NCBI GenBank assembly: GCA_008080765.1
Contig: SHMU01000004.1
Location: 1 to 54,311, forward strand
DNA length: 54,311 nucleotides
Reading direction: 5' to 3'
DNA from: Promethearchaeota archaeon
GTDB lineage: Archaea > Asgardarchaeota > Lokiarchaeia > Sigyniarchaeales > SOKP01
In this document: piece by piece, positions 21,294 to 41,497 of the stretch
Layout of the letters: every line of letters begins with the position of its first letter
How positions within the stretch are numbered: position 1 is the first letter of the stretch
Notes under the pieces: generated by a model
Told to the model about the DNA's origin: nothing
The model's database searches: none
What the model saw: only the letters and a program-made list of their open reading frames with translations
Position numbers and translations under genes: made by a program

Positions 21294-23837
21294 TTACTCC
21301 TTTTGTTTCCGTTTCTTAATTGAGTTTTTTCTTTTAAATTTCTTGCTGTCCACTGTATATCCCAGCTTTGACTTAATCGAATCCATATTAGCTTTTAACG
21401 CCTTTTTACTCTTTGGTGTGGTGCGTTTTTTAATAATTGATGTTTTCACTTGCTTATTCAAGGATGAGGATCCTCCCGCAATAGCACAAACCACACCCAA
21501 GGCAATCCCACCTGTTAAGATATAAGTTTGAGCTGTTTGAGCAGGATATAGTTCATCAGTAAACTTGCTGGCTAAATGCTGTGGTACTATACCACTTCTC
21601 TCATACCATACACTTGGCATCACTGTAGAATTTATATCTGAAGTGAAAAATTCATCGGAAGTCAAATTAAAGTTCACTTGAATTCTCTGTCGGGCATTCA
21701 TTGTTGCTCCAGAAATTGGTTCCACATCTATAAATGTTTCATGCATCATTCTGTCTGGATTTACTCCTTCTACTGATGTAATTACGCTCGGATCTGCATC
21801 GAGGAAATGAGGTTTGCTTACAAGAACGGGAGCTCCTTTGAATCGTTCAATAGGTTGCGCGTTGATTAATCCTTGCGTATTCATATAATATTTCTCATTT
21901 GGAGCAAAAGTACTTGGAGCAAAAGTGAATCTGTTTAACTCCACGCCATAGATGGAGGTCTTGCCAACATATACCATGTCAATAACTCGCATTAGATCGG
22001 GATTAAAAATTTTTGGGGGAACTATCCCGGTTGTTCCAGGTGAATTATACATCCCTAAGGAACCCATCACTTTTTCTGGTTGCTGCCAAAGATCTATAGT
22101 TGATTTTCCATCATATTTAACGATTTGATTAGCAAGTTCTTGACTATAAAGACCCGAATATATTGTAATGGGTTTGATACCCACTTCCCGTGCTTCTTGT
22201 TCTGTCTCAATATCTTCAAAGAAATTCACGCGAGACATAGAAGTGTCCCCTCCAGTTGCATTCATGAAATTGTAAATTGCTGTATCATTTGCTTCAAAAA
22301 GCCATTCTTCAACCGTTCGACTAATGATTGGTCCGCTGTTCCATTGACTCGTTTGAAAAGATACCGCATTTGGCATCCAATTAGAGATACTATAGTTTAT
22401 CCAAGCAAGAATCTTTTGAAGCTGGAAAGAGGTAATTCCAAAATAGGCCATTAAGTTTGCTCGGGCTACTGAGCCTTTGGAACCATCTAAGAGAGCATCA
22501 ATCCAAATTGGATTTTCCAGATAATCCATACCCGTCAATGAGAAAGGATCATTTTCATTCCAGAGAGCTTTACACTGGTCATAGATTATACCTGTTCTTC
22601 CAATTTCATCAAATTGCGAATAATTCATTTGAAGTCCGGAGTAAGTTTCACCCACAGTTCTCGTAAAATTCTTGATATATCTCCCCGTTTCTATAAATAT
22701 TGTATTGGTAATATTCAAATCCGCCTCTGGAGGACCTGCTATCCCGCTCAGTCCAAATTCTATATCAATTCCAACTCCACTCGCACTACCAGAATCATCA
22801 AGCATTTCTGCATTTTTCTTGCCGATTAAAGCATTTTGGGCTGCTCGAACCCCATCATCTGATAATGCTTGAGCAGTAAGATTTTCTGCGCTATCTCCCA
22901 ACATTGCTTTTGTTCCCGGATCCATAGTTTCAGGCATATCACTTGCAGTCCAATTAATATTATCCAATAAATAGGAAAAATTACCACCAAATTGAGCATA
23001 GGAGTCATTTGCCCATTCGGCATAGAATGCTGTTTCCCATTCAGGTAGTCCATTTCTTACAAAAGTTTTAAGAACGGAAGTATTAATTGTACTAAAGAAT
23101 ATATCTGCAGTTGTAATATTGTAGTATTCATAGATCGGCACGGATATCCCAAGAGGTTTCGCATCCTTAAGCAGTTCTGTTTGAGTATCTTTAATCCAAG
23201 TATCATTTCCAACGAGATCATTAATGGTGTCTGTATAAATGGTTTGAAAGGTGTCTTTTACTTGAGTGAGTACATAAGGCAATTGCATTTGCAAATAATT
23301 GCGCTCAGAGCCTCCCGCAAGGGCTATACCCCCAACAAACGCGGGATTCAAATTAGTTATATACACCTCTGAGATATTCTCCCCATCCACTTGCACATAA
23401 TCTATATATTCTCTGTAAGTGATCTCGTTAAATAATGCATCAGAGTAATGATCAAACTTATATGACCACGCCCGAAACACGAAGGGACCAATCTCCATAT
23501 AGATAGGTTTCTCAGTTCCACTCATAAATTCATCAGGATTTGTTAAATTCCACATATAATATGAATAAAATTCTGGAGGCGCTCCTGGATATTTATTTGT
23601 GAGAAATGTATAATAGTTCGATTCTAATAATGATGGTACCAGAATCTGATTATTTATTTGTGAATCAATTTCATCCTGGATAAATGAATTGAGAAAGATT
23701 GAGCCCGGGATTAAGGCAAGTCCGAGTATCAATACGCCAATTGCAGCCGCTTTACTTTTTTTACCCGGTTTTTTCACCGATTTTGTGAATGTTTCTGGTT
23801 TTATAGGTTTAATAGTTTTTTTCTTTGATTTCTTCAT
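21294..23837 (-). CDS. CD36/SR-B/LIMP-2 family scavenger-receptor-like membrane protein (paralog 1)
   Basis: N- and C-terminal TM helices; WNLTNPDEF..KPIYMEIGPFVF; RTVEEWLF; PVLVSKPHFLDAD..GVNPD..HETFIDVEPISG...RIQVN. Confidence 0.87.
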   Translation of the reverse strand: MKKSKKKTIKPIKPETFTKSVKKPGKKSKAAAIGVLILGLALIPGSIFLNSFIQDEIDSQINNQILVPSLLESNYYTFLTNKYPGAPPEFYSYYMWNLTNPDEFMSGTEKPIYMEIGPFVFRAWSYKFDHYSDALFNEITYREYIDYVQVDGENISEVYITNLNPAFVGGIALAGGSERNYLQMQLPYVLTQVKDTFQTIYTDTINDLVGNDTWIKDTQTELLKDAKPLGISVPIYEYYNITTADIFFSTINTSVLKTFVRNGLPEWETAFYAEWANDSYAQFGGNFSYLLDNINWTASDMPETMDPGTKAMLGDSAENLTAQALSDDGVRAAQNALIGKKNAEMLDDSGSASGVGIDIEFGLSGIAGPPEADLNITNTIFIETGRYIKNFTRTVGETYSGLQMNYSQFDEIGRTGIIYDQCKALWNENDPFSLTGMDYLENPIWIDALLDGSKGSVARANLMAYFGITSFQLQKILAWINYSISNWMPNAVSFQTSQWNSGPIISRTVEEWLFEANDTAIYNFMNATGGDTSMSRVNFFEDIETEQEAREVGIKPITIYSGLYSQELANQIVKYDGKSTIDLWQQPEKVMGSLGMYNSPGTTGIVPPKIFNPDLMRVIDMVYVGKTSIYGVELNRFTFAPSTFAPNEKYYMNTQGLINAQPIERFKGAPVLVSKPHFLDADPSVITSVEGVNPDRMMHETFIDVEPISGATMNARQRIQVNFNLTSDEFFTSDINSTVMPSVWYERSGIVPQHLASKFTDELYPAQTAQTYILTGGIALGVVCAIAGGSSSLNKQVKTSIIKKRTTPKSKKALKANMDSIKSKLGYTVDSKKFKRKNSIKKRKQKE

Positions 23838-23910
23838 TTTTATTTCGCTATAATTTTTGAATTAGTTTTGATTAGATCAAATTCTATCAATATAATCAGC
23901 AGAGGTGGTC

Positions 23911-23976
23911 ATCACCATAGCTGGTGATCGATAGTGATCTGTCATTAATTATATATCTATTAATGTCATATATAAA
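23911..23976 (-). promoter_or_regulatory. TATA box and palindromic operator upstream of CD36-like paralog 1
   Basis: ATCACC-N6-GGTGAT followed by CGATAGTGAT (23911-23938); TTTATATA on minus strand at 23969-23976 with purine-rich BRE-like flank. Confidence 0.7.
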
Positions 23977-24058
23977 CCTTTCCCTTTATGAATTAGAGAA
24001 TTAGAGAGCCTTTTCTGGTAAAAAAAGTCAATATTACTAAATAGGTTAAAAAGAACTC

Positions 24059-24099
24059 ATACAAAATTAAAAAAATACAAAATTAAAAAAATACAAAAT
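24059..24099. repeat. 16-bp tandem repeat (ATACAAAATTAAAAAA) x2.5
   Basis: Read directly; T-rich on the minus strand. Confidence 0.75.
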
Positions 24100-24189
24100 A
24101 AACAAGAGAAAGAGGAAAAAATAAAAAAAATCCAACTTGACAAAGTCAACCACCCGCAAATAACTTTTTTTAGTTCCATCCTTTACTCC

Positions 24190-24400
24190 CCCAGCATTAT
24201 GCCTGAACTCTTTATGATCCGGATCATCCCGGTACTCGCATAAAAAAATAGGCGTCTGGAGCTGTCGACCAATCCTAATCCTCATGGGTCATACCCGATT
24301 AAAAAACTGAGTCGCATGTTCCGGAATGTGAGTCTTAAAACTCCTTGCTACCGCGCACCTCGTTCGAGAGAGGCGGGAGGAGGCAAGAATAAGACGAAAT
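24190..24400 (+). ncRNA. Candidate IS110 bridge RNA (non-coding end)
   Basis: Two stem/internal-loop/hairpin units (24197-24243 and 24332-24395) plus a middle hairpin (24276-24301); strand assumed. Confidence 0.55.
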
Positions 24401-24430
24401 TACACATAAAGAATACACAAAGGGAGTAAC

Positions 24431-26207
24431 ATGAAAAATAAATCAGACAAGAACACACCAAAAGGGATAAAAACGCCCAACGGTTCTCGTAAGTTTGCGG
24501 GCTTGGTTATCCCAAAAGAGGAACTCGTTGAGCGTGCCGAACTCAGTAAGATTACTTCAGCAAATTTATATAAGTTATTGCAGCATAAAAATGTTCCTAA
24601 TCGGTCGAAACTATCCAAGAAGGGACAGAGAATTAACGCGTTGGTAGGAATGGTTACATACGGTGATATCGAAGAGAAGGGGTTTTCAATAAATATACGG
24701 AGATCACCCCAACTAGAAGTCAGCAACCCGAAGCATGATAGAAAGAGAAAGGAAAAGGAAAAGGAAAAGGAAAAGGCTATAGGGAAGGGAGTTCGGTTTG
24801 CATGCGATGTTGGGGGAATTGATGTGCACAAGTCCACGCTTGTGGTAGCTATTGCGAATACTAAAGGTATAAAAGTCCGTAAAACTGTGCCTAATGATGA
24901 GGCAGGAATTACAGATCTTATCCGATTCTTTACACATTATCGGGTAACCCACTGCGCTTTGTAGTCCACCGCTGAATATTGGCTAAAAGTCTTTTGGCTG
25001 CTTACCGAGGCACGTATTAAGGTTTTAGTGGCAAATCCGCTCCAGACAAAGACTACGCAAGGAAAAAAAGACAGATAAAGAAGATGCCGATAGGATCGCG
25101 CTTGCATTTAGGGATGGGCGCTTAAAGCCTTCTGTGGTCCGTAACGCGGAACAATATTCCATGCGTAAATTGAACCGAGCAGCCCTTAAGAAGACCCAAC
25201 AAGCAACAGCTTCCGCAAATCGGCTCAAAGCAATGGAGGAGATATACGATGCGCCTCAATGGATAAGCACCCTCTGCAAATCAGATCGGGGGCTGTGAAT
25301 CCTATGGAAGGCGCTCCAACTTAATGATGAAAGGGAAATTTTCAACGTTTTAGCTGAGGAATATGCACATGGGAGTCATAAAATTAAATCTGAAAAGGCG
25401 CTTCGGAACAGAGCCCAAGATCTTGCAGCTTTCTTAACTGTTATAGATATTAACGCCAATAATCGGTTAATCTACGCACAGCATATTGAAGATTATGTGA
25501 ACGCGAAACGAATCGCAAAAGAATTTCGGGTAAAGGTTTTAAAGTTTGGACTGGAACATACTGCCGTGAGCAGCCAGTTTAAGACTAATTTAGAATTGTT
25601 ATTGAGCGTTCCTGGCGTGGATATTGAGACCACTCTAACGATTGTAGTTGAAATGGTAAATGTTGATTTCTTTTGGAGTCCTAAAGGACTAGCTAGATGG
25701 GCTGGGCTTCCGCCCACTGTAAAACAATCGGGCTATCGAAAGCGAAGAAATGGGCACATTTATAAGGGAGGAAATAAGTGGCTCCGCACTGCGGTATGGT
25801 TAGCGGCAAAAAGCTGCTATATTCATTTAAAAGATACCGATGAGCCTGTCGGGAGCTTTATTAAGCGCTTATACAAAGAACGGAATAAACACTTTCTTGT
25901 AGCCGTCACCGCGGGTTCTCGGAAGCTCCTAACTTATATTTACTATGTATTAAAAAGCCAGAAGCCCTATGAAAAAGTAGTAGAAATTCAGCAGAACGAG
26001 CAGAGAAAAGTTAAGAATAAACGGAAATTGGCGAAGCTTCATAGATTAATGAATAATTCATCTCTTTCCGAACTTTTACCCCTCGTAGTTAAATCGCTGA
26101 AGCGAGAGCATAATAAACTGAGCGAAACGGAAAAGGAATTAGCATATGAAATGGCATGCAATTTAAATGTGATTCCAAAAGGATTTTCTCCTAATGAGTA
26201 CGGGTAA
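24431..26207 (+). pseudogene. IS110 family transposase/recombinase pseudogene
   Basis: GIDVHK, AL*STAEYW (TAG 24962-24964), VANP, KTDKEDA after a +1 frameshift in the A-run 25063-25069, TGA at 25296-25298, SVPGV, WAGLPPTVKQSG. Confidence 0.9.
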
Positions 26208-26382: not shown

Positions 26383-29300
26383 CTAGTGGGTTCTAAATCG
26401 TAATTTTCTGCGATAGAAATAGAATACTAGTAGCATAGCTGCAGCGATAGTTGAGAATAGCAGCAATGTTGGATAACCAGGAATTCCTTCCGTTGGTGGA
26501 CGGAAAATTGGGAAGAATGGAGGGACCCATAGAGGCTCCTCTACAGTAATCTTAATGATTACACTTTCCTCATTTCCATGAGCATCCTGAGCAACAATCT
26601 CAAGCCAATATTCTCCAATCACCAAATCAGAATTGTTTGATATGACTCCGGTGTGTGGGTCAATTTGGAAATTCGCAGTGTCATTGATTGAATAAATCAA
26701 TGGTGCCGCAAGATCCTCAGCATTCACATCGTAATTAAATGAATCTCCAAAAACAATAGTTTGATCTTTAGGAATGGGATCCCAAATTGGATCTATTGTG
26801 TCCTCCACAGTAATTTTGATTGCTGCGCTATTTTCGTTTCCAGCAGTATTATTTACAGAGACTTCCAACCAATATTCACCCACCATAAGTGCAGAAAATC
26901 CTTCGGTTATCAATCCTATATTAGGATCAATCTGGAAATTATCAGTATCATTAATCCAATACTGCTCTATTCCTACAGCACTATCCGCATTTACAGTATA
27001 ACTTAATCCTTCTCCAAATTCAATTGTCTGATCTACAGGTTGAGGATTCCATAGTGGAATATCAATTGTTGTAACAGTAATTGTAATAGGAGTACTAATA
27101 TTATTAGGACTGGCTGCTGCATCGGTTGCGATTACAGTGATATCGTAGGTGCCTTCCCCTAACGGGGTTGAATTGGTAAGGACTCCAGTAACAGAATCAA
27201 TATCAAAAGAGCCAGCATCGGGACCGGAAATCAAATAGCTTATCGGTGTGGACAAGTCATTCGCATTCACATCCTGATTGATTTCTGTATCAGGTGCTAC
27301 TACTTGATCTACGGGTGGATTCGTCCATGCTGGTGCAATAGTATCTTGTACCGTAATGGTAATTGCTTGCTCGATGTAATCGGAGGGATTCGTTGCATCT
27401 TCGGCACGTACAGTAATCGAATACACATCTTCTGCCAATGCCCCGTCGTTCGTTATTTCACCGGTTGAATCAATATTAAAGAAGCCCGCATAGGCTCCCG
27501 AAATCGAGTATACAACACCATCAGCATCTTCAGCATTTACAGTATAGCTAAATGGATCTCCAAGTTCCACAGTTTGGTCTTGCGGTGTTGGATTCCAGTA
27601 AGGCTCACCCATAGCAACCGTAATCGTAATAGGAGTACTAATACTATTAGGAGTGGCTGCTGCATCAGTTGCGATCACAGTGATATCGTAGGTTCCTTCC
27701 CCTAACGGGGTTGAATTGGTAAGGACTCCAGTAACAGAATCAATATCAAAAGAGCCCGCATCGGGACCGGAAATGGAATAGCTAATCGGTGTGGAGAAGT
27801 CGTTCGCGTCTACATCCTGATTGATTCCATTGCCCAGCTCGATTGTCTCATCAACGGGTGGTGTTGTCCATGTTGGTGCAATAGTATCTTGCACCGTGAT
27901 GGTTATCGGTGAATTAATAGAATTGGATTCCGCATCGGTCGCGGACACAGTGATATCATACATACCTTCACTTAATGCTACCGAATTGGTAAGAACACCA
28001 GTATTAGGATCAATGGTAAAAGAGCCCGCATCGGGACCGGAAATGGAATAGGTAATCGGTGTGGACAAGTCGTTCGCGTCTACACCCTGATTGATTCCAT
28101 TACCCAGCTCGATTGTCTCATCAACGGGTGCAACAACCCAAGTAGGTGCGGTAGTATCTTGCACCGTAATGGTTATCGGTATACTAATACTATTTGGAGT
28201 GGCTGCCGCATCGGTTGCAATCACATTAATATTGTAGGTGCCTTCTGTTAAAGGACCAGAATTGGTAAGAACACCAGTATTAGGATCAATGGTAAAAGAG
28301 CCCGCATCGGGACCGGAAATGGAATAAGCAACAGGAGTAGAAGGATCAGTCGCATCCACATCTTGATTGACCCCATCTCCAAGTTCGATTGTCTCATCGA
28401 CGGGTGCAACAACCCAAGTAGGTGCAGTAGTATCTTGTACCGTAATGGTAATTGCTTGCTCGATGTAATCGGAGGGATTCGTTGCATCTTCGGCACGTAC
28501 AGTAATCGAATACACATCTTCTGCCAATGCCCCGTCGTTCGTTATTTCACCGGTTGAATCAATATTAAAGAAGCCCGCATAGGCTCCCGAAATCGAGTAT
28601 ACAACACCATCAGCATCTTCAGCATTTACAGTATAGCTAAATGGATCTCCAAGTTCCACAGTTTGGTCTTGCGGTGTTGGATTCCAGTAAGGCTCACCCA
28701 TAGCAACCGTAATCGTAATAGGAGTACTAATACTATTAGGAGTGGCTGCTGCATCAGTTGCGATCACAGTGATATCGTAGGTTCCTTCCCCTAACGGGGT
28801 TGAATTGGTAAGGACTCCAGTAACAGGATCAATATCAAAAGAGCCCGCATCGGGACCGGAAATCGAATAGCTTATCGGTGTGGACAAGTCATTCGCTTCT
28901 ACATCCTGATTCAATCCATTTCCAAGTATAATAGATTGGCTAACTGGAGCAGTCGTCCATGTTGGTGCAGTGGTATCTTGCACCGTGATGGTTATTGGGG
29001 TACTAATGTTATTTGGAGTGGCTGCCGCATCGGTTGCAATCACATTAATATTGTAGGTGCCTTCTGTTAAAGGACCAGAATTGGTCAAGACACCAGTATT
29101 AGGATCAATGGTAAAAGAGCCCGCATCGGGACCAGAAATGGAATAGGTAATTGGTGTGGACAAGTCGTTCGCGTCTAGCTCCTGATTGATTCCATTACCC
29201 AGCTCGATCATTTCATCAACGGGTGGTGTTGTCCATGTTGGTGCAATAGTATCTTGCACCGTGATGGTTATCGGTGTATTAATAGAATTGGATTCCGCAT

Positions 29301-32300: not shown

Positions 32301-34524
32301 AAACATATTGGTTTTTGCATTCAGTATCACTCATTGAACCATCATCAAAGTAGGTTCTTAGAGAGTTCATCAATCCAGTTTTGGTATTCGTAGAACCATC
32401 ATTTCCATAAAGGGACATTTCAGTAAATCCACCAACATCTTGCCAATACCACTGGAGGCTACTATAAGTATCACCCGAAAAGATTTGGGAGAATTCTTGA
32501 ACAGGTATATATGTCCAAGCACCTGCTGTGTTGGTTTTTACGTATCTCCAATCACTTAAGGGATTTCCCGTTACAATCGGTGAGCTTTCATCAAAGAGGG
32601 ATGGATTCGGTCCCGCATCATTTGCAAGATAATCTTCACCAGTATTACCACCATTTGGAGTACAAGTTCGAGTTGTTGCATATACAGGATCACATTGAAT
32701 GTATCCATATCCACTTGGAGCTTGTCCAAGCCATACTGATGGATTATTACTTCGAATATCATTATGAAGCACAGCACCATCATAGAACATGTAATACACA
32801 TTCATATAGACGTTTAAGTTTGGATCTCCAGCACCTCGAGGGGAATAATCTAAATCAAGAAGATATTCCACCTCTCTCATTTCATTCGCAAAAAAGCTGG
32901 TTGTATATCTGTCAAATCTCAAACCTTCTTCATATTCCATTGAATTAACTTCATTATCAACGAAAGTAAACTGTACTTGTCGTAATGAAAATTGATCAAT
33001 AATTACTCTAATGGGTCCATCAACAGCGGCTTGGTGTCCATTCGCAAAAGTGATCAAGCCTCTTACAAATGGGGCATGTTCACTATTAAGACCATAATTC
33101 CCATCATGGTCCATCCCATCATCCCAAGATGCAACATTGCCAATCCCTATTAAACTAAGGAAGAAATATTCATCCCACCATCCACCATATCCAGAAGATC
33201 GATGATTCTGTCCTCCTGGTAATGGTTGGTTCCATGGACGATGTCCATTAGTATAATCACTATCTTGTCCCGGAAAGATAGGATCTCCTACTCCAGCGGC
33301 AAGATTTTGCAGATCAAAATCCATTGTTGTACCATAACCAATATCTGTAATGAGCTCATCATAAAAAGTACCACTCCATGTGCCCATTCTCGTGCCTGTG
33401 CAGGTGTCAGCTTGAGAATCAACTGCACCAGCACCAAATGTAGAGCCTGCTCTTTGAATGTCAAGTTGAAGTTGTTGCCATTCTTTATTCCATTCAGTAA
33501 ACATATTTTGACCTTCAACTACAATTGAAGCAAGAAAAGCTTGATCAGCCGTAGAATCATAAGAATATTGGTAATTTTCACCAGTAACCGTTTGGGTACC
33601 AGAATTCCATGCTACTTGATCATCAGAAGGACCATTAGGCATAAAAAATTTTTCAGCGGGTGGTGGAGTACCCATATCATCATTATAATACAAGTACATA
33701 TACCCAGTACCGCCACCTGACACAGGATCAGTAATGGCTAATTCATATCTATCGGGATATGAAGCGGCATTCCACCAATTAGAGGCATCTACTTGATCCC
33801 CATTGTAGGCATAAAAACTTACCTCATCGTCATAATCAATTCTATCAGGTAATTGTTCCCAAGCACCACCCGGTTGTTCAAGATTATAAGGATATACCCC
33901 CGGATCCGGTTGAACGGGAGGTTCTGCTTGGGGAGCATCTCCATCTGACCATGGTTCATCAGTATAATATTCTGCAGCTCGTGCTGCCCAAAATTCCATC
34001 TCACAATCATACTGAGATAATTCTGTCGCACTTGCAGCATAACTATCTACATGATCACCTACATATCGGTGATCGGAGATAAAGTGACCCCAATTAGTCT
34101 GTTCTGTATATTGAGTACCGCCACTAAAGCTAATATCTCCTTCAACATGCTTTCCAGTTTCATATGTATAGGATCTGAAATACCCCATCTCATCTAACTG
34201 GAAGGGAACTAATACCCAACTGGAGCCATCATAATATGCAATTCTGATATTATCAACATGATGATTTTTTAATGCGGTCCATAATGCACCGCCAGCAGTC
34301 TCATTATCAAGAATCACGGGATAGCCCGTTCGAGTTAAAGTTCCCGCTACATTCGGATTATCGTATTGATTAAATGCGTTCGGAAATGTTAAATCGGTTT
34401 TTTTTGTTGAGTTTAACGCTCCACCCAAACTAAAAAAAATGGGCATTGTTAAACAGCAGATAATTCCAAGAATAATCTCATAATGCTTTAATTTTTTTGT
34501 TTTTCTTAGTTTTGTAATGTTCAT
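26383..34524 (-). CDS. Giant cell-surface protein with 21 cadherin/Ig-like repeats and a C-terminal sorting signal
   Basis: N-terminal basic+hydrophobic signal, ~760-aa unique head, 21 repeats of ~91-93 aa (DTxAPTW...FxIDxxTG...YxITVxATD), C-terminal IPGY-TM-RRK. Confidence 0.92.
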   Translation of the reverse strand: MNITKLRKTKKLKHYEIILGIICCLTMPIFFSLGGALNSTKKTDLTFPNAFNQYDNPNVAGTLTRTGYPVILDNETAGGALWTALKNHHVDNIRIAYYDGSSWVLVPFQLDEMGYFRSYTYETGKHVEGDISFSGGTQYTEQTNWGHFISDHRYVGDHVDSYAASATELSQYDCEMEFWAARAAEYYTDEPWSDGDAPQAEPPVQPDPGVYPYNLEQPGGAWEQLPDRIDYDDEVSFYAYNGDQVDASNWWNAASYPDRYELAITDPVSGGGTGYMYLYYNDDMGTPPPAEKFFMPNGPSDDQVAWNSGTQTVTGENYQYSYDSTADQAFLASIVVEGQNMFTEWNKEWQQLQLDIQRAGSTFGAGAVDSQADTCTGTRMGTWSGTFYDELITDIGYGTTMDFDLQNLAAGVGDPIFPGQDSDYTNGHRPWNQPLPGGQNHRSSGYGGWWDEYFFLSLIGIGNVASWDDGMDHDGNYGLNSEHAPFVRGLITFANGHQAAVDGPIRVIIDQFSLRQVQFTFVDNEVNSMEYEEGLRFDRYTTSFFANEMREVEYLLDLDYSPRGAGDPNLNVYMNVYYMFYDGAVLHNDIRSNNPSVWLGQAPSGYGYIQCDPVYATTRTCTPNGGNTGEDYLANDAGPNPSLFDESSPIVTGNPLSDWRYVKTNTAGAWTYIPVQEFSQIFSGDTYSSLQWYWQDVGGFTEMSLYGNDGSTNTKTGLMNSLRTYFDDGSMSDTECKNQYVFSKEGFSIAITAQTAPSDTEPPVWTTAPVDETIELGTGVSQDLEATDPSTPITYSISGADASSFDIDPNTGLLINSVPLSVGTYDITVSATDSYSNSLDTPITITVQDTIAPIWMTAPVDETIELGTGVNQDVEATDLSIPITYSISGADASSFDIDPVTGVLTNSVALSVGTYNITASATDVESNALNTPIIITVQDTGAPTWVVAPVDETIEFGDGINQDVDANDLSTPITYSISGPDAGSFTIDPNTGVLTNSVALSEGTYDITVSATDAESNSINTPITITVQDTIAPTWTTPPVDDMIELGNGINQDVDANDLSTPIAYSISGADASSFDIDPVTGVLTNSVALGVATYDINVIATDSAITSNSISTPITITVQDTGAPTWVIAPVDEVIELGDGINQDVDAIDPSTPVTYSISGADAGSFTIDPNTGVLTNSVALSEGTYDITVSATDAESNSINSPITITVQDTIAPTWVVAPVDETIELGNGINQDVDANDLSTPITYSISGVDASFFTINIGTGVLTNSGPLTEGTYNINVIATDAAATPNSISTPITITVQDSTAPTWVVAPVDETIELGDGINQDVDANDLSTPITYSISGANAGIFDIDLNTGVLTNSVALAEGTYNIIVSATDAAATPNSISTPITITVQDTTAPTWTTAPVSQSIVLGNGVNQDVDANDLSTPITYSISGPDAGSFTIDSVTGVLTNSTQLGEGTYDITVIATDAAATPNSISTPITITVAVDEPYWNPTPQDQTVEFGDPFSYTVNAEDADGVVYSISGADAGFFDIDSTGEITNAGALAEDMYSITVRAEDATNPSDYVEQAITITVQDTIAPTWTTAPVDETIELGTGVNQHVEATDLSTPITYSISGANAGSFTIDPYTGVLTNSVALSVGTYDITVSATDAAASPNSISTPITITVQDTGAPTWVVAPVDETIEFKDGVNQDVDATDPSTPVTYSISGPDAGSFTIDPNTGVLTNSVALSEGTYDITVSATDAESNSINTPITITVQDTIAPTWTTPPVDEMIELGNGINQELDANDLSTPITYSISGPDAGSFTIDPNTGVLTNSGPLTEGTYNINVIATDAAATPNNISTPITITVQDTTAPTWTTAPVSQSIILGNGLNQDVEANDLSTPISYSISGPDAGSFDIDPVTGVLTNSTPLGEGTYDITVIATDAAATPNSISTPITITVAMGEPYWNPTPQDQTVELGDPFSYTVNAEDADGVVYSISGAYAGFFNIDSTGEITNDGALAEDVYSITVRAEDATNPSDYIEQAITITVQDTTAPTWVVAPVDETIELGDGVNQDVDATDPSTPVAYSISGPDAGSFTIDPNTGVLTNSGPLTEGTYNINVIATDAAATPNSISIPITITVQDTTAPTWVVAPVDETIELGNGINQGVDANDLSTPITYSISGPDAGSFTIDPNTGVLTNSVALSEGMYDITVSATDAESNSINSPITITVQDTIAPTWTTPPVDETIELGNGINQDVDANDFSTPISYSISGPDAGSFDIDSVTGVLTNSTPLGEGTYDITVIATDAAATPNSISTPITITVAMGEPYWNPTPQDQTVELGDPFSYTVNAEDADGVVYSISGAYAGFFNIDSTGEITNDGALAEDVYSITVRAEDATNPSDYIEQAITITVQDTIAPAWTNPPVDQVVAPDTEINQDVNANDLSTPISYLISGPDAGSFDIDSVTGVLTNSTPLGEGTYDITVIATDAAASPNNISTPITITVTTIDIPLWNPQPVDQTIEFGEGLSYTVNADSAVGIEQYWINDTDNFQIDPNIGLITEGFSALMVGEYWLEVSVNNTAGNENSAAIKITVEDTIDPIWDPIPKDQTIVFGDSFNYDVNAEDLAAPLIYSINDTANFQIDPHTGVISNNSDLVIGEYWLEIVAQDAHGNEESVIIKITVEEPLWVPPFFPIFRPPTEGIPGYPTLLLFSTIAAAMLLVFYFYRRKLRFRTH
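26540..32250 (-). repeat. Coding tandem array of ~273-279 bp units with higher-order duplications
   Basis: 27341-27737 and 28430-28826 are essentially identical (offset 1089 bp); third, slightly diverged copy near 29795-30160. Confidence 0.9.
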
Positions 34525-34618: not shown

Positions 34619-34671
34619 GATCACCATAGGCGGTGATCGGTAGTGATTAATTCAACTTCAAAGTATATAAA
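34619..34671 (-). promoter_or_regulatory. TATA box and palindromic operator upstream of the giant surface protein gene
   Basis: GATCACC-N6-GGTGATC followed by GGTAGTGAT; 25/28 identical to 23911-23938; TTTATATA on minus strand at 34664-34671. Confidence 0.72.
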
Positions 34672-35257
34672 GGTTTCGATATAGGTGATCAGTAATCATT
34701 AAGGTATTAAGATCGGAGATTAGAAGGTCCCTTCTGATGAGAATGATGTTTTTTTAAATCTTTAACTAATATTTATTCATCAAGTATTATCTTTCGAATT
34801 TCTGTAGGAAAGAGTACTAAGAAACGCAATTTGGGTAAGAGCGAATGTTTAATGGATGTTTAAAAGGATAATAATGTTAAAAAGAAAGAAAATCAGAATG
34901 GGTTTTATTATGTTATTGCAAACTAGTTACTACGAAAGAAGGTATTGATTTATGGATTTCTGAACCTAATCTAAACCCATTAAAGTAAAAATGAGATATA
35001 TCTGAGAAGATGACGAAAAATTTCGCACTAAAAAAAACAAATCTATAATTATTTTTAACAAGGTTTTATAAAATAAGAAGAAGGGAAAAATAGATCATAA
35101 AATTTTTTTGGATTATACATTTATTTAAAATATCAATATAGAATAATTTTTGGAATATCCCAACAGATTTTTTAATGTGGAATCTAACTAACAATATAAG
35201 AACATATTAAAGAGTATTTATAATTATTCTAATCAATAATTTTAATGGTGTTAAATT

Positions 35258-35962
35258 ATTTCTGAACAAGATACAGGCGTAAAATACGAATATGAGATAT
35301 TACAATGCGTCAAAAACAATCCGGGCGGGCTAACGGTTACTGACATTGCGGAGATCAAGGGGTTTAGTCGGAACACAGTATCCAAATATATTAGTATCTT
35401 AAAGGTAAAAAAAAAGATCAGAAAAAAGAAAATTGGCGCCTATTCTCTCTATTTTTCCACGGAGGAGAATTATTTGCCCAATACTCTTGTGTTATCTTAT
35501 TATAAAGTTTTATTGAAAGGGTTAAAAGAGAATTTTCCTGAGAGGGGTGATTTGTTCAAGGAATTAATCAAAAAAAATGTATCTGATATCAAATTCACCT
35601 TTTCGCCCAAAGTATATCAACAATTGAAGTATTTTAAGAATCATCCTATTTCCCAATATACAAAAATCCATTTAGAAATTTTTAAGGAGTTTTATCCTAC
35701 TTATGATATTTTCCAACCGGATGTGGAGATATCGATTCTAAAAATTGATCCTAAGGGGCAAAAAGCTATCTATCGGTTCAGAAATTCTGTTTTTCTAGAA
35801 AATAATGAGGATTATATTTATCATCTTTATTTCATGTGTGGTTTAACTGAAGGGATCTTAGAGCGGGAAATACACCGAGAAGTTAAATGTGAGGTTGAAA
35901 ATTATCATGTAGGGGGAGGAAAGGAAGATTCCTATTTTGATATTTCAATTACCATTAAATAA
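35258..35962 (+). CDS. Winged-HTH transcriptional regulator with V4R-like C-terminal domain (paralog 1)
   Basis: Frame is open upstream of the track start (35474) back to ATT 35258: ILQCVKNNPGGLTVTDIAEIKGFSRNTVSKYISIL is an HTH; aligns with the next gene. Confidence 0.82.
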   Translation: MSEQDTGVKYEYEILQCVKNNPGGLTVTDIAEIKGFSRNTVSKYISILKVKKKIRKKKIGAYSLYFSTEENYLPNTLVLSYYKVLLKGLKENFPERGDLFKELIKKNVSDIKFTFSPKVYQQLKYFKNHPISQYTKIHLEIFKEFYPTYDIFQPDVEISILKIDPKGQKAIYRFRNSVFLENNEDYIYHLYFMCGLTEGILEREIHREVKCEVENYHVGGGKEDSYFDISITIK

Positions 35963-36089
35963 ATTTTGTTCTCAATTAATCCTTTAAAGCTAATATTTAT
36001 AAATATTTCAACAATTCCTAAGACTTATATAGTAAGCATTACAATACACTTATATTACATCCGTAAAACCTAAAAAAGGGTGTGTACAG

Positions 36090-36815
36090 ATAACTGAGCA
36101 ACAATCAATAATAAGCTATGCAAAAGAGATATTGGAATGTATCAAGAACAATCCTGGCGGAATTACGATTACAGATATTTCTCAGATGCGAGGATTTTCG
36201 CGCAATACGGTATCCAAATATATTAACATCTTGAAGGAAAAGAAGAAGATCCGAAAAAAGAAAGTAGGTGCCTATTCTCTCTACTTTTCTATGGAAGAGA
36301 ATTTTTTGCCTAATAGTCTTGTGCTCTCCTATTATCAGGTCATATTAAAGGGTTTAAAAGAATATTTTCCCGATAATGAAAGAGGAGAATTTTTTAAACA
36401 GCTAATTCAGAAGAATGTTGATGAAATTAGGATTAATATAAGCCCGGAAATGAAAAAAAAACTAAATGAATTAGGAGAGAAGCCAACAAGGGAATTAATT
36501 TCGATAAATCTCAATTTATTTAAGGAATTATATTTAATGTATGACCTTTTTCAACCGGATGTTGATATATCCTTATTAGAAATAGATGCAGATCAGAATA
36601 AAGTTATATATCGGTTTAAGAATTCTCGTTTTTTTGAAGATAATGAGGATTACATCTATCACTTATATTTTATGTGCGGAGTCTCTGAGGGGATATTAGA
36701 AAGAGCATTAAAAAGAAAAATAACTTGTCGGCTTGAGAACAATCATATAGCTGGAGAGAAGGAGGATTCATATTTTGATCTTTCAATTGAAATTGGACAG
36801 AGAACTAGGTCATAA
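36090..36815 (+). CDS. Winged-HTH transcriptional regulator with V4R-like C-terminal domain (paralog 2)
   Basis: PGGITITDISQMRGFSRNTVSKYINIL; YHLYFMCGVSEGILE; start at ATA 36090 (inferred) or TTG 36132. Confidence 0.85.
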   Translation: MTEQQSIISYAKEILECIKNNPGGITITDISQMRGFSRNTVSKYINILKEKKKIRKKKVGAYSLYFSMEENFLPNSLVLSYYQVILKGLKEYFPDNERGEFFKQLIQKNVDEIRINISPEMKKKLNELGEKPTRELISINLNLFKELYLMYDLFQPDVDISLLEIDADQNKVIYRFKNSRFFEDNEDYIYHLYFMCGVSEGILERALKRKITCRLENNHIAGEKEDSYFDLSIEIGQRTRS

Positions 36816-36926
36816 AAAAACCAAAATGCATATACATTTCTTAACATGAATCTCTGATTCCGAAAACATCTATTATTGTAAAAAAGATAAACCAAGAAAA
36901 AGGGGAGATGTGTGTTAATAGTTTTA

Positions 36927-38477
36927 CTATTTAGCATCTACACTAAGCTTTTTCTTTGCAGGCTTTTTAAGTAAGTTTTGGGTTTTTTTTCCAATGAATA
37001 AATATCCATCCTCATCTATCTCAGCACTCTCTCCCGTATGTAGCCACCCATGTTCATCAATAATCTTATTGGTAGCTTCCCGATTTTTCCAATAGCCTTT
37101 CATTACTGAGGGTCCCTTTATTAAAAGTTCGTCCTTTTTTTTATTAAGTTTTTGTTTTATTTTTTCATAGGGATTATCTAAAATTTCTAATGGGGGTCCT
37201 CTTGATGTAATTTTATGATAAAAGGGGATCTTTTTCTTAAAATCCGGGCGCTTCTTAGAATTATATTTTGTTCTCAACAGATGGGTAATTGCGGTAAGTT
37301 CTGGAAGGCCATAAGAGGTGAGCAAGGAGATTCCAATTGAATTAAAGAAATACAGATATTTTTCTGATATGTTAGCGGGACTACTAATCATAAGTTTCAG
37401 CTTGCCTCCAAAAGATTTTCTGATGATTTTTCCAATAATTTTTTGAAGAATTTTATGTTTAAGGATTGCACCAATTTTATTTCTCTTAGTTTTTGCTTTG
37501 TTTTTATAATAGATCTCTGCATTTTGTATGAAGTCCTTTACTAATTCTTGTTGTCTTTTAGGATAATCTTCAAGCGTTTTAAAGACAATGAAATGGATAA
37601 CTTGATAAATCAATGGATATGCAATCATAATCGTAGGTTTAAATTTTTCAAATGATTTTTCAATGAGATCTGGGTCTAACTTATTAACAATATCCAAGGA
37701 AGAGCCAAGCATTAAAGAGCTCAACATCAGGAGTCTACCTAGGGGATCTGAAAAAGGGATGAGGGAAAGAATATGTTGTTTCCACGGTTTCATTTTTTTT
37801 TGTGCTTTCATTAATGTAGATGTAAATGCAGTTGCGTTGGAAAGTATATTCTTATGGGTGAGCATTATTCCATTGGGAGCTCCTTTCATCTCTGAAGAAT
37901 AAAGAATAGTTGAGAGATCTTTTTCTTCTGTAGCTCGAATTGAAATATTGAACTTAATAGAGGAATGGTATTGAGCTTCTCCTAAAGACAAGAGCTCATC
38001 GAATGTCATAATATTCGTTTTATTATTAGATTGTTTCTTTGGATAAAAAATGATAATCAATTTGAGAAGAGAAGTATCATTTATAATTGAGGAGAGCTTC
38101 TTTAATGTGGTTAAATTATCAATGAAAAGTGCTTTACACTCAGAATCTTCTAAAATAGAATTCAAGTTTTTTCTCTTAAGATCGGGGTCGATGGGAATCG
38201 TTATCCCTCCCAAAGCTTGGATTGCTAAGTCTGCGATAATCCATTCGGGATTCGCTTTTGAACAAATCCCAATATGATCACCGCGAGTAAAGCCCATCTG
38301 TGTTAATGCATAAAAAACTGCTGTCATAGAATCGGCTAATTCATTAAATGATAAAGTTTGAATTTTATCATGCGATACGAGCCATCGAATTGCAATTTCA
38401 TTATAATATTTATTCTTAATATTTATGATCATTTCAGGTATATTTTTATACCGAATGAGAGATTGTGTTTTCTTCAT
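36927..38477 (-). CDS. Long-chain acyl-CoA synthetase-like AMP-binding protein with degenerate catalytic motifs
   Basis: ANL fold motifs (EWIIADLA, GPSVMKGYW, GWLHTG) but YSSEMKGAPNG, YGLPE, TGE; C-terminal subdomain missing. Confidence 0.85.
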   Translation of the reverse strand: MKKTQSLIRYKNIPEMIINIKNKYYNEIAIRWLVSHDKIQTLSFNELADSMTAVFYALTQMGFTRGDHIGICSKANPEWIIADLAIQALGGITIPIDPDLKRKNLNSILEDSECKALFIDNLTTLKKLSSIINDTSLLKLIIIFYPKKQSNNKTNIMTFDELLSLGEAQYHSSIKFNISIRATEEKDLSTILYSSEMKGAPNGIMLTHKNILSNATAFTSTLMKAQKKMKPWKQHILSLIPFSDPLGRLLMLSSLMLGSSLDIVNKLDPDLIEKSFEKFKPTIMIAYPLIYQVIHFIVFKTLEDYPKRQQELVKDFIQNAEIYYKNKAKTKRNKIGAILKHKILQKIIGKIIRKSFGGKLKLMISSPANISEKYLYFFNSIGISLLTSYGLPELTAITHLLRTKYNSKKRPDFKKKIPFYHKITSRGPPLEILDNPYEKIKQKLNKKKDELLIKGPSVMKGYWKNREATNKIIDEHGWLHTGESAEIDEDGYLFIGKKTQNLLKKPAKKKLSVDAK

Positions 38478-38635
38478 TTTTTAATTATTCCTTTTGGTTT
38501 AGTTATTCGCTACATTATTATATTATTATTTTGTATTATTCTACGGGTATTTTGAATATATTGGATTTAAAAGGTCTAGATAATGTATTCTATCCTTTAA
38601 AAAATATATAAAAAATAAAAAATGTGATTATTGAG

Positions 38636-41239
38636 CTATTTCTTAGTATTTGATTTCTTCGATTTCATTTTTTTTATCGGTTTTTTAGATTTGAGATTCT
38701 TTTTCTTCAAAGTTTTACTTTCTGGAAGTGTATAACCCAGTTTTTCTTTTACTGAACCTAAGTTTCCTTTCAGATTTTGCTTGCTTTTAGGTTGAAGTCT
38801 CTTTTTTATGATAGATTTCTTTACTTCGTGATTCATCGTTCCCGCACCTCCTGCGATGCCAAGTATTACTCCTAAGGTTATTCCTCCAGGAAGTATGTAG
38901 GCTTGTGCTGTTTGGGCAGGATATACCTCATTAGTAAATCGTTCCGCTAAGTGGAGAGGAACGATTCCACTCCGTTCATACCATACTATCGGCATTGTAG
39001 TTGTGTTTATATCTGAGGTAAAGTATTCTTCCGAAGTTAGATTAAAATTGACTTGGATTCGCTCTCTTGCATGCATAGTAACCCCGGAAATAGGTTCAAT
39101 ATCTATGAACGTATCATGAGCCATTCTATCAGGGTGTGTACCATTTATTGAAGCGACTACTTGGGGATCGGCATCAAGAAAATGTGGTTTGCTTACCAAA
39201 ACAGGTACCCCTCTGAACTTTTCGACAGCTTGAACATTGATTAATCCTTGTGTATTCATATAATAATTTTTATTTGGAGAGAATGTTTTAGGAGCAAACG
39301 TAAATCTATTGAGTTGTACCCCATACACAGAAGTTGGACCAAGATATACCAAATCAATTACACGCATTAAATCGGGATTAAATATCTTTGGGGGAACTAG
39401 TTCAGTAGCTTTACCGGGATTATACATTCCTAAAGATCCCATTAAAGGTTCAGAATGCTGCCATAAATTAATCGTCGACTTTCCATCATAAGCCACGACT
39501 TGTCTGGCAAGTTGCTCATTAGTATGCCCAGTCGTCATGGTTATAGTTTTGATATACGCTTCTTCTTCGGCTATGGTTTGATTTTCACAATTATCAAATA
39601 AATGTACACGTCCAATGGAGGTATCCTTTTCATAATACTCCATAAAACTGCATACTGCCTCATCAGTAGCTTCAAAAAGCCATTCTTCTACTGTGCGATT
39701 GGTAATTACTCCACTATTCCATTCATTCGACTGATATGCAACAGCATTTGGAAGCCATGTTTCAATACTTGTATCAATCCATTCCAAAATCTTAGCTAAC
39801 TGGTCGGAGGTAATCCCAAAATAAGCCGTCAAATTTCCTCTGGCATATTCTCCTTCAGGAGTATTGTCAAGAGCATCAAACCACAGTTGATTTTCTTCAT
39901 AGTCCATTCCGGTAAGGGATAAAGGATCGCTCTTGTTCCAGAGTGCTACGCATTGATCATAAGTGATTCCAGTCTCGCCTACTATATTATATTGATCTAA
40001 ATCCATTTTGGTGCCAATATGGAGCGGAATTATCAACCATACCCATTCCCAGAATTCTTCCTCGTAATCTTCAATCTGTACATATTCTGTGTTTGTAATA
40101 TTCAGATCTGCTTCCGGAGGGATTGCAGTTCCTGCAAGCGTACCATCAATATCTACACCTAACCCGTTTAAGCTTCCCGATTCATCGACCATCTCAGCGA
40201 TTTGTTTCGAAATTAAGGCGTTCTGAACCCTCTGGATATCCTCATCTAATAAGGTTTGTACCATCAGATCCTCAATACCAGCTGCTAGAAGTACCTCAAT
40301 TCCACCACCTGTATAATCAACTTGATTTGCCAAGTAATTGTAATCCCCATTAAATTGGGGAGCAGAATCATTTGCCCATTCAGCATAAAATACTTCTTCC
40401 CAATCGGGCATTCCTTGCTCTAAGAAAAACTGTAAATCAGAAATCTCAATGCAATCAAAAAAAATATCAGCCACAGTTTTTGAAGATATTTCAGACGCTC
40501 CGAGAGTTTCACATTCACTTAGAATGTCTCTCTGTGATTGCTCAATCCATTCTTCATCATTCAATTGCGTATCCATACTTTCTGTAAATATAGATTCAAA
40601 AGTTTCTTTTACTTGGCTGAGCACATATGGAAGGTTCATCTCACAATAATCCCTTTGGGAGCCTCCTGCCATCGCCACGCCTCCTAAAAATGCAGGATTC
40701 ACATTGGTGATATAGACTTCGGAGATATTTTCTCCTCCGACTTGGACATATTTTTCATATTCTTTATATGTCACGGTTGAGCTAATCAAATTGTAAGAGA
40801 TGTCGTATTTGTATTTTAAATATTTGAACCTAAATGGTCCTATCTCCTCATATACTGGGGGTTCACTTCCAGAAAGAAACGCATCTGGATTCGTTAAATT
40901 CCATAAGTAATAGGTTTTATATTCTTCGGGAGCCCCGGGATAATCATTAGTAACGAAAGTAAAATAATTTGAATCTAAGGGTGTGGGAACGAGCGTTTGC
41001 TCCCCAATTCCTTTGGCTATTTCTTCATCTATGAATGAATTTAAAAAGATGGTACCGGGTATTAAGGCAATCCCCAACACAATTAAAGTGATGGTTCCTA
41101 CTTGGCTTATCTTTTTAGGTTTTTTCATTGCTTTTGCGAATGGATTTTGGGGCTTTTTCTTTTTTGATAATTTCAATGGAGTCTTAGATTTAATGGTTTT
41201 CGAAGTGTTAAGTTTTTTTTTCTTTAATAATTCGGTCAT
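38636..41239 (-). CDS. CD36/SR-B/LIMP-2 family scavenger-receptor-like membrane protein (paralog 2)
   Basis: WNLTNPDAF..PPVYEEIGPFRF; RTVEEWLF; VSKPHFLDAD..HPD..HDTFIDIEPISG...RIQVN; two terminal TM helices; colinear with paralog 1. Confidence 0.87.
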   Translation of the reverse strand: MTELLKKKKLNTSKTIKSKTPLKLSKKKKPQNPFAKAMKKPKKISQVGTITLIVLGIALIPGTIFLNSFIDEEIAKGIGEQTLVPTPLDSNYFTFVTNDYPGAPEEYKTYYLWNLTNPDAFLSGSEPPVYEEIGPFRFKYLKYKYDISYNLISSTVTYKEYEKYVQVGGENISEVYITNVNPAFLGGVAMAGGSQRDYCEMNLPYVLSQVKETFESIFTESMDTQLNDEEWIEQSQRDILSECETLGASEISSKTVADIFFDCIEISDLQFFLEQGMPDWEEVFYAEWANDSAPQFNGDYNYLANQVDYTGGGIEVLLAAGIEDLMVQTLLDEDIQRVQNALISKQIAEMVDESGSLNGLGVDIDGTLAGTAIPPEADLNITNTEYVQIEDYEEEFWEWVWLIIPLHIGTKMDLDQYNIVGETGITYDQCVALWNKSDPLSLTGMDYEENQLWFDALDNTPEGEYARGNLTAYFGITSDQLAKILEWIDTSIETWLPNAVAYQSNEWNSGVITNRTVEEWLFEATDEAVCSFMEYYEKDTSIGRVHLFDNCENQTIAEEEAYIKTITMTTGHTNEQLARQVVAYDGKSTINLWQHSEPLMGSLGMYNPGKATELVPPKIFNPDLMRVIDLVYLGPTSVYGVQLNRFTFAPKTFSPNKNYYMNTQGLINVQAVEKFRGVPVLVSKPHFLDADPQVVASINGTHPDRMAHDTFIDIEPISGVTMHARERIQVNFNLTSEEYFTSDINTTTMPIVWYERSGIVPLHLAERFTNEVYPAQTAQAYILPGGITLGVILGIAGGAGTMNHEVKKSIIKKRLQPKSKQNLKGNLGSVKEKLGYTLPESKTLKKKNLKSKKPIKKMKSKKSNTKK

Positions 41240-41244
41240 ATAAT

Positions 41245-41318
41245 ATCACATTTTAGAGATGATCAGTGGTGATCATCAAAATACTATTAATGCAATATTG
41301 ATCAACATTATATTTAAG
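41245..41318 (-). promoter_or_regulatory. Operator-like palindrome and probable TATA upstream of CD36-like paralog 2
   Basis: GATGATCA-GTGG-TGATCATC at 41258-41277 with the same TGATC-N5-TGATC spacing; TTAAATATA on minus strand at ~41309-41317. Confidence 0.55.
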
Positions 41319-41497
41319 ACTATCTCAACAAACTTAAGTCCGATTGAAAAGAGATTTAGATAAAAAGAGAGGATTAATTACTCTATAGTGGTTTTATCAA
41401 ATGAATCTCAATCAAAAAGCATAAATATAGTAATGGAAAGAAATGGGTTTGCGTTTGAAATAACTCTTAGCTTACTTTACCAATTCTAGCTTTTCTA

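Follow-up and report, generated by a model that had tools for sequence, protein, structure and literature searches.

The DNA analysed here, referred to as the window, is the 54,311-nucleotide (nt) contig SHMU01000004.1 (positions 1-54,311) of the assembly GCA_008080765.1 of a Promethearchaeota archaeon, and the subject of this report is a locus in it that encodes two homologs of the CD36 scavenger receptors together with two paralogous regulators and a giant surface protein. The assembly comprises 3.9 Mb and is 73% complete; the stretch is present in two DNA runs from one marine-sediment metagenome study, one of which is possibly the source of the assembly. Genomes, contigs, loci, genera and families compared below carry the letters G, C, L, g and f with a number, the window being contig C4. 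Between positions 21294 and 41320 the open reading frames (ORFs) follow each other in the order CD36-A, a remnant of an IS110-family insertion sequence (IS), the cadherin-repeat giant, Reg1, Reg2, a gene with an AMP-binding domain, and CD36-B.

CD36-A (21294-23837, minus strand, 847 amino acids (aa)) and CD36-B (38636-41239, minus strand, 867 aa) share 56% identity and match the Pfam family PF01130 with 223.2 bits (E 6.2e-66) and 219.1 bits (E 1.1e-64), respectively, the curated cut-off being 26.5 bits. A phmmer search against solved structures retrieved LIMP-2 (4q4b, E 5.2e-21) and CD36 (5lgd, E 1.1e-16), and a profile scan of the whole genome recovered both halves of CD36-A and of CD36-B. 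The two CD36-family receptors announced in a preliminary description of this DNA are borne out by these matches to Pfam (E about 1e-65) and to LIMP-2 and CD36 in the Protein Data Bank (PDB); judging from sequence, the window encodes two true homologs of the CD36/class B scavenger receptor (SR-B) family. A Kyte-Doolittle scan, which reads simple hydrophobicity and is not a topology predictor, places hydrophobic segments at residues 36-54 and 777-795 of the CD36-A ORF and at residues 45-63 and 782-800 of the CD36-B ORF (both numbered on stop-to-stop ORFs). This is the hairpin arrangement of the PF01130 family, and lysine-rich tails are found at the ends of both proteins. The likeness to the eukaryotic SR-B family (CD36, SR-BI, LIMP-2/SCARB2) thus comprises homology across both ectodomain halves, a hairpin topology with a membrane segment at either terminus and short basic tails, and the conserved S-x-P-H-F motif, which reads S-K-P-H-F in the alignment of the Asgard proteins and is well kept among them along with the barrel part of the CD36 domain.

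The Asgard proteins differ from their eukaryotic counterparts in the apex of the ectodomain. The profile match of CD36-A comes in two pieces (profile positions 11-171, then 146-459), about 300 aa being inserted at profile positions ~146-171, the site of the compact apex in animal proteins; with this split match the window proteins lack a compact, continuous apex of the metazoan type. No cysteine is invariant, or nearly so, in an alignment of 25 Asgard CD36 sequences, whereas conserved disulfide cysteines of the ectodomain are described for Metazoa in PMC10715195. A structure-atlas search with the CD36-A insertion (residues 195-500) returned only sub-threshold matches (feature scores <=0.80, TM <=0.35), the atlas's own model for that search having a mean pLDDT (predicted local distance difference test) of 0.60. 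The Asgard genes are furthermore intronless, lie on archaeal contigs of up to 504 kb, and stand under the predicted control of a prokaryotic winged helix-turn-helix (wHTH) regulator and its operator.

Within the insertion of CD36-A we delimited a module of ~70-90 aa, hereafter the X-module, the profile of which was built from residues 405-500 (22338-22625, minus strand); in CD36-B it corresponds to residues 413-508 (39716-40003, minus strand; hmmsearch E 1.0e-38). One copy is present in each of the 23 Asgard CD36 ORFs scanned. The module occurs as well in 19 proteins that do not belong to the CD36 family, with 1-8 copies per protein (2-8 in 18 of the 19) and E-values from 3e-11 to 2e-71, and it is therefore a domain in its own right.

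The giant surface protein (26383-34524, minus strand, 2713 aa) is laid out as an N-terminal anchor, a head, a series of repeats, and a C-terminal transmembrane segment with a basic tail. Pfam Cadherin matches 19 stretches of it (E 5.8e-147), and period analysis resolves 21 cadherin-like units of ~90 aa from residue 762 to ~2660; the head of ~700 aa has no Pfam match, so that the surface stalk of 21 repeats with a distinct head is found as it had been described. The extreme C-terminus (26383-26480), in which PGY is followed by a hydrophobic stretch and a basic tail, recalls archaeal C-terminal sorting signals; a sorting signal of the PGF-CTERM type was considered and rejected, the last 138 aa matching no NCBIfam family. 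The G+C content of the repeat region (28000-32000) is 0.44-0.45 against 0.30-0.36 in its flanks, which may reflect repeats rich in Thr, Asp and Ala or a foreign origin. Between CD36-A and the giant lies the decayed IS110-family transposase (24410-26207, plus strand), broken into three reading frames (24410-24964, 25029-25298 and 25299-26207) with the Pfam domains DEDD_Tnp_IS110 and Transposase_20 on separate ORFs; it is likely to be a trace of the rearrangement that expanded the locus.

Reg1 (35255-35962, plus strand, given as a stop-to-stop ORF) and its paralog Reg2 (36036-36815, plus strand) are 61% identical in alignment and consist of an N-terminal wHTH and a C-terminal domain of ~170 aa. 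The wHTH is confirmed by Pfam in 36/36 members of the family (HTH_24, HTH_11, HTH_IclR). The C-terminal ~170 aa are well conserved, with 27 invariant columns across the whole protein, and match nothing in Pfam, NCBIfam or the PDB; homologs carry helix-turn-helix (HTH) Pfam domains only, and a PDB profile search with the regulator returned HTH matches only (IclR, E 2.5e-5). Of the designation wHTH-V4R-like used previously, the first half holds, but the second finds no Pfam or PDB match: at the sequence level V4R is absent from the 18 families matched by Reg1 at E<=5 and from the 25 commonest of the 69 families matched by the 36 members. The family was found in Asgard archaea only, in 72/135 genomes at E<=1e-10 and with several paralogs per genome. 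With one-component wHTH regulators of the MarR, IclR and TrmB kind it shares the N-terminal wHTH and an operator in which short palindromic elements stand in pairs close to the promoter; it differs from them by its confinement to Asgard archaea and by a C-terminal domain that matches nothing.

The 3.9-Mb assembly contains exactly two perfect copies of the palindrome GATCACC-N6-GGTGAT, one ahead of CD36-A and one ahead of the giant, each with a (G/A)ATCAC half-site ten bases upstream of it. The operator of CD36-A (23910-23940, minus strand; GATCAC-N4-GATCACC-N6-GGTGAT, palindrome at 23911-23929) begins ~9 nt past a TATA-like box (23948-23960) and includes a direct half-site pair at 23925-23939, and that of the giant (34619-34648, minus strand; AATCAC-N4-GATCACC-N6-GGTGATC, palindrome at 34619-34638) begins 15 nt past a TATA-like box (34663-34673). 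Matches to the palindrome motif number five in the window, a count reached by 0/100 shuffles. CD36-B carries a variant of the motif, TGATCACCACTGATCA, rather than the identical palindrome; as read from the sequence, its element (41258-41277, minus strand; GATGATCACCACTGATCATC) consists of two TGATCA 10 nt apart, located ~20 nt ahead of the ATG, and a third TGATCA is found at 41299-41304. The operator claimed for the three envelope genes is thus present and kept in relatives, as a perfect palindrome at CD36-A and the giant but only as a variant at CD36-B. The position of the operator, where archaeal transcription would start, suggests repression.

For comparison between genomes the site was defined as two GATCA/TGATC half-sites 8-16 nt apart and was counted in 732,741 nt, namely 41 loci and the window. 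This yielded 46 half-site pairs. A pair lies between -250 and +120 of 18 of the 42 CD36 or X-module genes, against 0.98 expected (binomial p 1.3e-18); none was found near the genes of seven control neighbour families, and two near regulator genes. The 22 intergenic pairs comprise 16 before CD36 or X-module genes, two before acyl-CoA ligase genes, one before the giant and three that were not assigned. The motif had been defined on a first set of loci, and in the second set, fetched afterwards, 9/18 genes (9/15 loci) possess a pair, where ~0.4 would be expected at the overall rate.

PF01130 was detected in 29/400 Asgard genomes and 11/85 genera, including Hodarchaeales, in 19/134 other genomes of the family of the window, and in 0/14 control genomes. 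Synteny was surveyed with the window proteins over up to 20 kb around 20 of the CD36 homologs. A regulator adjoins the CD36 gene at 12 of these 20 loci (12/15 in family f1, 0/5 in other families), and orthologs of Reg1 adjoin either CD36 or X-module genes. The giant, the AMP-binding gene and a metallo-beta-lactamase (MBL) hydrolase gene were each found beside CD36 in 0/20 related loci, and the radical S-adenosylmethionine (rSAM), mutase, B12, MeaB and L10e genes of the window accompany CD36 in one genome only. In the latter (G276, same genus, 504-kb contig), one CD36 gene and one regulator gene are situated between L10e and the rSAM-mutase-B12-MeaB block; the flanks being the same, the window locus is a duplicated and expanded version of this simpler locus. 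CD36-A and CD36-B both group with the single G276 copy in trees, and the unit appears doubled in the window (CD36-A/CD36-B, Reg1/Reg2; arrangement as given by the assembly). A tandem of CD36 genes is also found in G265. The idea that the five components of the window constitute one conserved system is therefore not upheld, the giant and the ligase being found beside CD36 in none of the 20 loci.

A second fetch of 20 loci around close regulator orthologs, in genomes devoid of a CD36 match, revealed beside the regulator another kind of membrane protein, ~550 aa long or, in its larger forms, up to 1597 aa, that carries the X-module. In genera g12 and g13 the slot next to the regulator is occupied by a CD36-like gene or by X-module genes, and by both in one locus. 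A further type of surface protein is encountered in G277 (L037 5630-8299), where CD36 and the regulator flank a gene for an 890-aa membrane-anchored protein with 10 DUF285 (BspA-like) repeats. The giant's head has homologs in 8/134 other genomes of the family of the window. Those of G175 (contig C205) and G155 (contig C203) are divergently oriented to regulator paralogs, with dense GATCTGATCA arrays between the two genes, and since they adjoin regulator paralogs the giant is plausibly a regulated surface protein rather than a random insertion. The array of G175 (L093, ~1190-1260) counts five tandem GATCTGATCA units and is much denser than that of the window. Two more distant regulator paralogs in the genome of the window, of 37% identity (C128 4250-4939; C3 33447-34166), adjoin multi-pass membrane proteins, and no half-site pairs occur in the intergenic regions next to them on these two contigs. 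The wider regulator family therefore has other targets, and only among the closer orthologs does the rule of a regulator combined with a hairpin surface protein apply.

The conserved unit is thus composed of an Asgard-only regulator and a surface protein with N- and C-terminal membrane segments, which is either a true CD36/SR-B member or a protein of X-module repeats and whose promoter bears, at a TATA-like box or immediately behind it, two GATCA/TGATCA half-sites with a spacing of 8-16 nt. This operator has also been acquired by the cadherin giant of 21 repeats and by an intact long-chain acyl-CoA ligase encoded on contig C41 of the same genome. As the regulator and this class of operator are found at surface proteins other than CD36 as well, the common denominator is a regulated surface protein and not lipid.

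The connection with lipids comes from the acyl-CoA ligases and their neighbours. The AMP-binding gene of the window (36927-38477, minus strand, 516 aa) is located 158 nt downstream of CD36-B, and only 111 nt separate its end from the next gene. The protein matches AMP-binding PF00501 with E 1.3e-46, and its best NCBIfam matches are long-chain-fatty-acid-CoA ligases, all far below their cut-offs. It shares 53% identity over 514 residues with the intact 661-aa ligase of contig C41, of which it is a degenerate paralog: its P-loop reads SSEMKGAPNG against TSGTTGEPKG in the C41 paralog (the canonical wording in acyl-CoA synthetases being T-S-G-T-T-G-x-P-K-G), and the motifs A5 and A7 are broken as well (YGLPE against YGLTE and GWLHTGE against GWLHTGD). 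It stops at residue 516, so that the C-terminal subdomain, represented in the paralog by AMP-binding_C_3 at residues 503-639, is absent. The degenerate acyl-CoA synthetase noticed directly downstream of a receptor is accordingly real, with its broken P-loop, its truncation and its distance of 158 nt from CD36-B; the role of lipid recipient that had been ascribed to it would fall to a paralog that is truncated and whose P-loop is broken, and is not supported. We read the gene as a probable decaying duplicate and not as a working part.

The genome contains one further copy of the 15-mer from the CD36-A operator. It stands on contig C41, after a TATA-like box and ahead of the ATG of the intact ligase (661 aa, FadD11-like, E 2e-76), and behind this ligase a second one of 912 aa with a fused N-terminal membrane domain is encoded. 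In another species of the same genus without a CD36 match (G274), a gene for an X-module protein of 1012 aa is followed by the ortholog of this ligase, which has its own half-site pair, and by a FabK-like reductase (TIGR03151, E 3e-58, below cut-off), the trio being convergent with a regulator. A FabK-like gene overlaps or directly follows the CD36 gene in G275 and G173 and is found 4.5 kb away in G175. The operator before the acyl-CoA ligase and the FabK-like genes after CD36 make lipid uptake plausible. The fatty-acid link proposed at the outset is therefore retained in part: the operator precedes an intact ligase in two species, but most loci have no lipid gene adjacent.

Two further features of the ligase surroundings may be recorded. 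A glycyl-radical enzyme of the PFL2/glycerol-dehydratase family (L055 3383-5773, contig C41; E 4e-220, above cut-off) is encoded upstream of the operator-bearing ligase on the opposite strand. Membrane proteins of ~250 aa belonging to one family, for which neither Pfam nor NCBIfam gave a match, turn up repeatedly in the vicinity of CD36, regulator and ligase genes (window 43294-44034; L055 1549-3113 and 8962-9700; L039 1-1651; L072; L073); this family also supplies the N-terminal domain of the 912-aa ligase on C41 and may be a membrane partner of ligases.

Taken together, we favour for this Lokiarchaeial genome, with a probability of about 0.45, a lineage-specific regulon of cell-surface proteins whose CD36-like members move lipid, most likely fatty acid. 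Its two parts are not equally firm: the regulon of regulator, operator and surface protein is probably real, and lipid uptake as its purpose is put forward tentatively. In the proposed mechanism the regulator would bind the paired sites over the transcription start, probably as a dimer, and repress; a small ligand sensed by its C-terminal domain would bring about release. The CD36-like proteins would work in the manner of the eukaryotic receptors, with the apex capturing a hydrophobic cargo and the barrel conducting it to the membrane. For this genus a fatty acid or acyl lipid would be the likeliest cargo, and its ligation to CoA would keep it in the cell. The cadherin giant would be a co-induced adhesin, and the truncated ligase beside CD36-B presumably a decaying duplicate. 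In the bacterial FadL-FadD-FadR system, as in the eukaryotic pairing of CD36 with FATP/ACSL proteins, fatty acids are taken up by 'vectorial acylation', and the logic proposed here would be the same, with a conduit co-regulated with a trapping acyl-CoA ligase by a wHTH regulator. The Asgard case differs in that its parts have no homology to FadL or FadR, that the ligase lies on another contig, and that the operator precedes it only in this genus.

Several observations weigh against this reading. The window's own copy of the ligase is degenerate; the operator was found in only 2/14 ligase-family loci examined, both from genus g1, and a ligase stands beside a surface gene in the window and one other locus only. 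Lipid genes are limited to genera g1 and g11, with FabK-like genes at four loci, and the conserved neighbours in g12 and g13 (MoCF, zinc-ribbon, AIR-synthase-like, HEAT, PIG-L and Ras-like proteins) are none of them lipid-related. In the other Asgard families (5 loci) the CD36 homologs are accompanied neither by the regulator nor by the operator. A strict half-site pair is missing from 24 of the 42 CD36 or X-module genes, several of which have degenerate versions, and the p-value of 1.3e-18 overstates the evidence since related genomes are not independent; the specificity of the operator is clear despite this kinship. Finally, neither Reg1 nor Reg2 has an ATG, GTG or TTG ahead of the wHTH.

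On the last point, the starts of regulators were compared in the window (35255-35270 and 36036-36140) and in L035, L036, L037, L056, L041 and L063. A conserved ATT follows a Shine-Dalgarno-like GGTGA in 3/5 regulator orthologs of the genus of the window, and ATT is likely to be the start codon of Reg1. Some orthologs in g12 and g13 have ACG exactly where others have ATG. From these alignments the family looks as if it uses conserved near-cognate start codons. The public gene calls of two such orthologs are shortened (191 and 188 aa).

The main rival to lipid uptake is adhesion or recognition. Here the large surface proteins would bind cells, particles or polymers, the CD36 domain would be a scavenger-type binding module, and the ligase and reductase would be incidental or belong to a separate pathway. 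Eukaryotic CD36 proteins also bind proteins and microbes, four ectodomain types (CD36-like, X-module, head with cadherin repeats, and DUF285/BspA-like) stand under the same regulator family and operator class, and most loci have no lipid gene nearby. We nevertheless hold this explanation to be rather unlikely, because in two species an intact acyl-CoA ligase gene stands behind the same operator, because some CD36 genes are overlapped or immediately followed by a FabK-like gene, and because the barrel part is conserved together with S-K-P-H-F, which an apex-only binder would not need.

That the locus is a variable surface cassette, a slot in which coats are swapped under pressure from viruses or competitors, with the regulator picking the coat and neither lipid nor adhesion being the selected trait, would account for the CD36-like gene or the one or two X-module genes found in the same syntenic slot of close relatives, for the varying copy number (the tandem CD36 genes of G265, the duplicated unit of the window), for the decayed IS110 within the locus and for the patchy occurrence of CD36 in 19/134 genomes of the family. 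It is quite improbable all the same, given that nothing points to a mechanism of switching (invertible DNA or a recombinase, for instance), that the CD36 core is clearly conserved, and that the operator's tie to a cytoplasmic metabolic enzyme does not fit. Very improbable is the complete five-part machine, in which the stalk tethers lipid particles, the CD36 pair imports, the pseudo-ligase receives and V4R regulators sense: all five genes do lie within 20 kb and three of them have the shared operator, but the giant and the AMP-binding gene are beside CD36 at none of the 20 related loci, G276 makes do with one CD36 and one regulator between the same flanks, the rest being inserted or duplicated in the window, the pseudo-ligase lacks an intact P-loop and the whole C-terminal domain, and V4R was not detected. 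Hardly credible is the absence of any functional unit, with chance neighbours and a motif left over from a duplicated promoter, for although the two perfect-palindrome operators are ~27/30 identical and could stem from one duplication in a rearranged locus with an IS remnant, the half-site pair is found at orthologous and non-orthologous surface-gene promoters in several genera, in the out-of-sample set as well, and always beside the same regulator family.

The relationship of the Asgard proteins within the CD36 family was analysed starting from a whole-library search, which gave 2693 CD36 representatives at E<=0.001. In a FastTree phylogeny of 154 sequences, 23/23 genome-derived Asgard proteins fall into one group of 54 with support 91, the neighbouring groups being eukaryotic; among ten unlabelled members of this group that were checked, three are named, as Lokiarchaeota, Hodarchaeales and Kariarchaeaceae, and none is eukaryotic. 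With IQ-TREE (LG+C20, 57 sequences) a single branch separates the 21 Asgard rows from all others (Shimodaira-Hasegawa-like approximate likelihood ratio test (SH-aLRT) 92, and 90 without the insertion columns), and this clan is placed beside long protist forms with support 89 both with and without these columns; the trees are unrooted and the supports moderate. Long protist SR-B proteins with an expanded apex occur in Amoebozoa, Diphylleia, Stygiella and Muranothrix, and the 2023 survey in Genome Biol Evol (PMC10715195) describes the apex as labile. In our comparison the profile is split at positions 142-156 in 5/5 long protist proteins tested, against 146-152 in the window proteins, whereas the metazoan control P0099 is continuous over profile positions 3-462. 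Searched against ~250 sequences, the X-module profile matches 4/5 labelled protist proteins, with E-values between 1.2e-14 and 4.5e-4, as well as 15 unlabelled members of the protist clade, and 0/6 labelled compact forms. From the common split site and the X-module it follows that Asgard and long protist CD36 proteins share a specific architecture. The protist forms, which are the nearest tree neighbours of the Asgard clan, are eukaryotic, and in Asgard archaea the X-module exists also as 1-8 copies in non-CD36 proteins.

These data fit inheritance from an Asgard ancestor as well as a transfer between Asgard archaea and protists, and the free-standing Asgard X-module proteins make us lean, on sequence grounds, towards an archaeal home for the module. 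A bolder scenario, which we consider unlikely, would have SR-B lipid-tunnel receptors arise in Asgard archaea with an X-module apex and reach the first eukaryotes by descent, the compact animal apex being derived, and would see in the Lokiarchaeial succession of receptor, ligase and FabK-like enzyme a ligand-induced route of fatty-acid scavenging. If true, this route could have fed bacterial-type fatty acids into the archaeal host, which bears on the start of the switch from archaeal to bacterial membrane lipids.

The SR-B family has been traced to the last eukaryotic common ancestor and treated as a eukaryotic invention, the survey of 2023 having searched eukaryotes only, as far as its available text (PMC10715195) indicates. 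We found no report of archaeal CD36 in the literature, where supplementary tables of Asgard signature proteins might list PF01130. With the homologs from Lokiarchaeia, Hodarchaeales and Kariarchaeaceae, the eukaryotic signature proteins would gain a membrane receptor of the lipid-handling or scavenger kind, and an origin of the family before eukaryotes is hinted at. That the lipid divide is unresolved is stated in the abstracts of bioRxiv 10.1101/2024.07.05.601840 and PMC7852524; should the archaeal CD36 proteins move lipids, uptake of bacterial fatty acids by the archaeal host would become testable with a defined set of genes. Independently of the lipid question, the analysis defines an extracellular module and a regulator family confined to Asgard archaea, both of them new, the operator of that family, and a rule, regulator plus hairpin surface protein, to guide the annotation of Asgard genes.

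Two genes outside the locus had been brought forward in support of fatty-acid use. The supposed lipase is an alpha/beta-hydrolase (Hydrolase_4) at 702-1541, but it lies ~20 kb off and is without the operator. The supposed isobutyryl-CoA mutase (ICM) can be retained as an acyl-CoA mutase of the methylmalonyl-CoA mutase (MCM)/ICM family, accompanied by a B12 subunit and MeaB. Elsewhere in the window are encoded a DnaJ-DnaK-GrpE cluster (1792-6180), an ADP-forming acetate-CoA-ligase-like alpha subunit (45266-46666), a Ras-family small GTPase (50956-51471), the ribosomal protein L10e and a leucine-rich repeat (LRR) protein.

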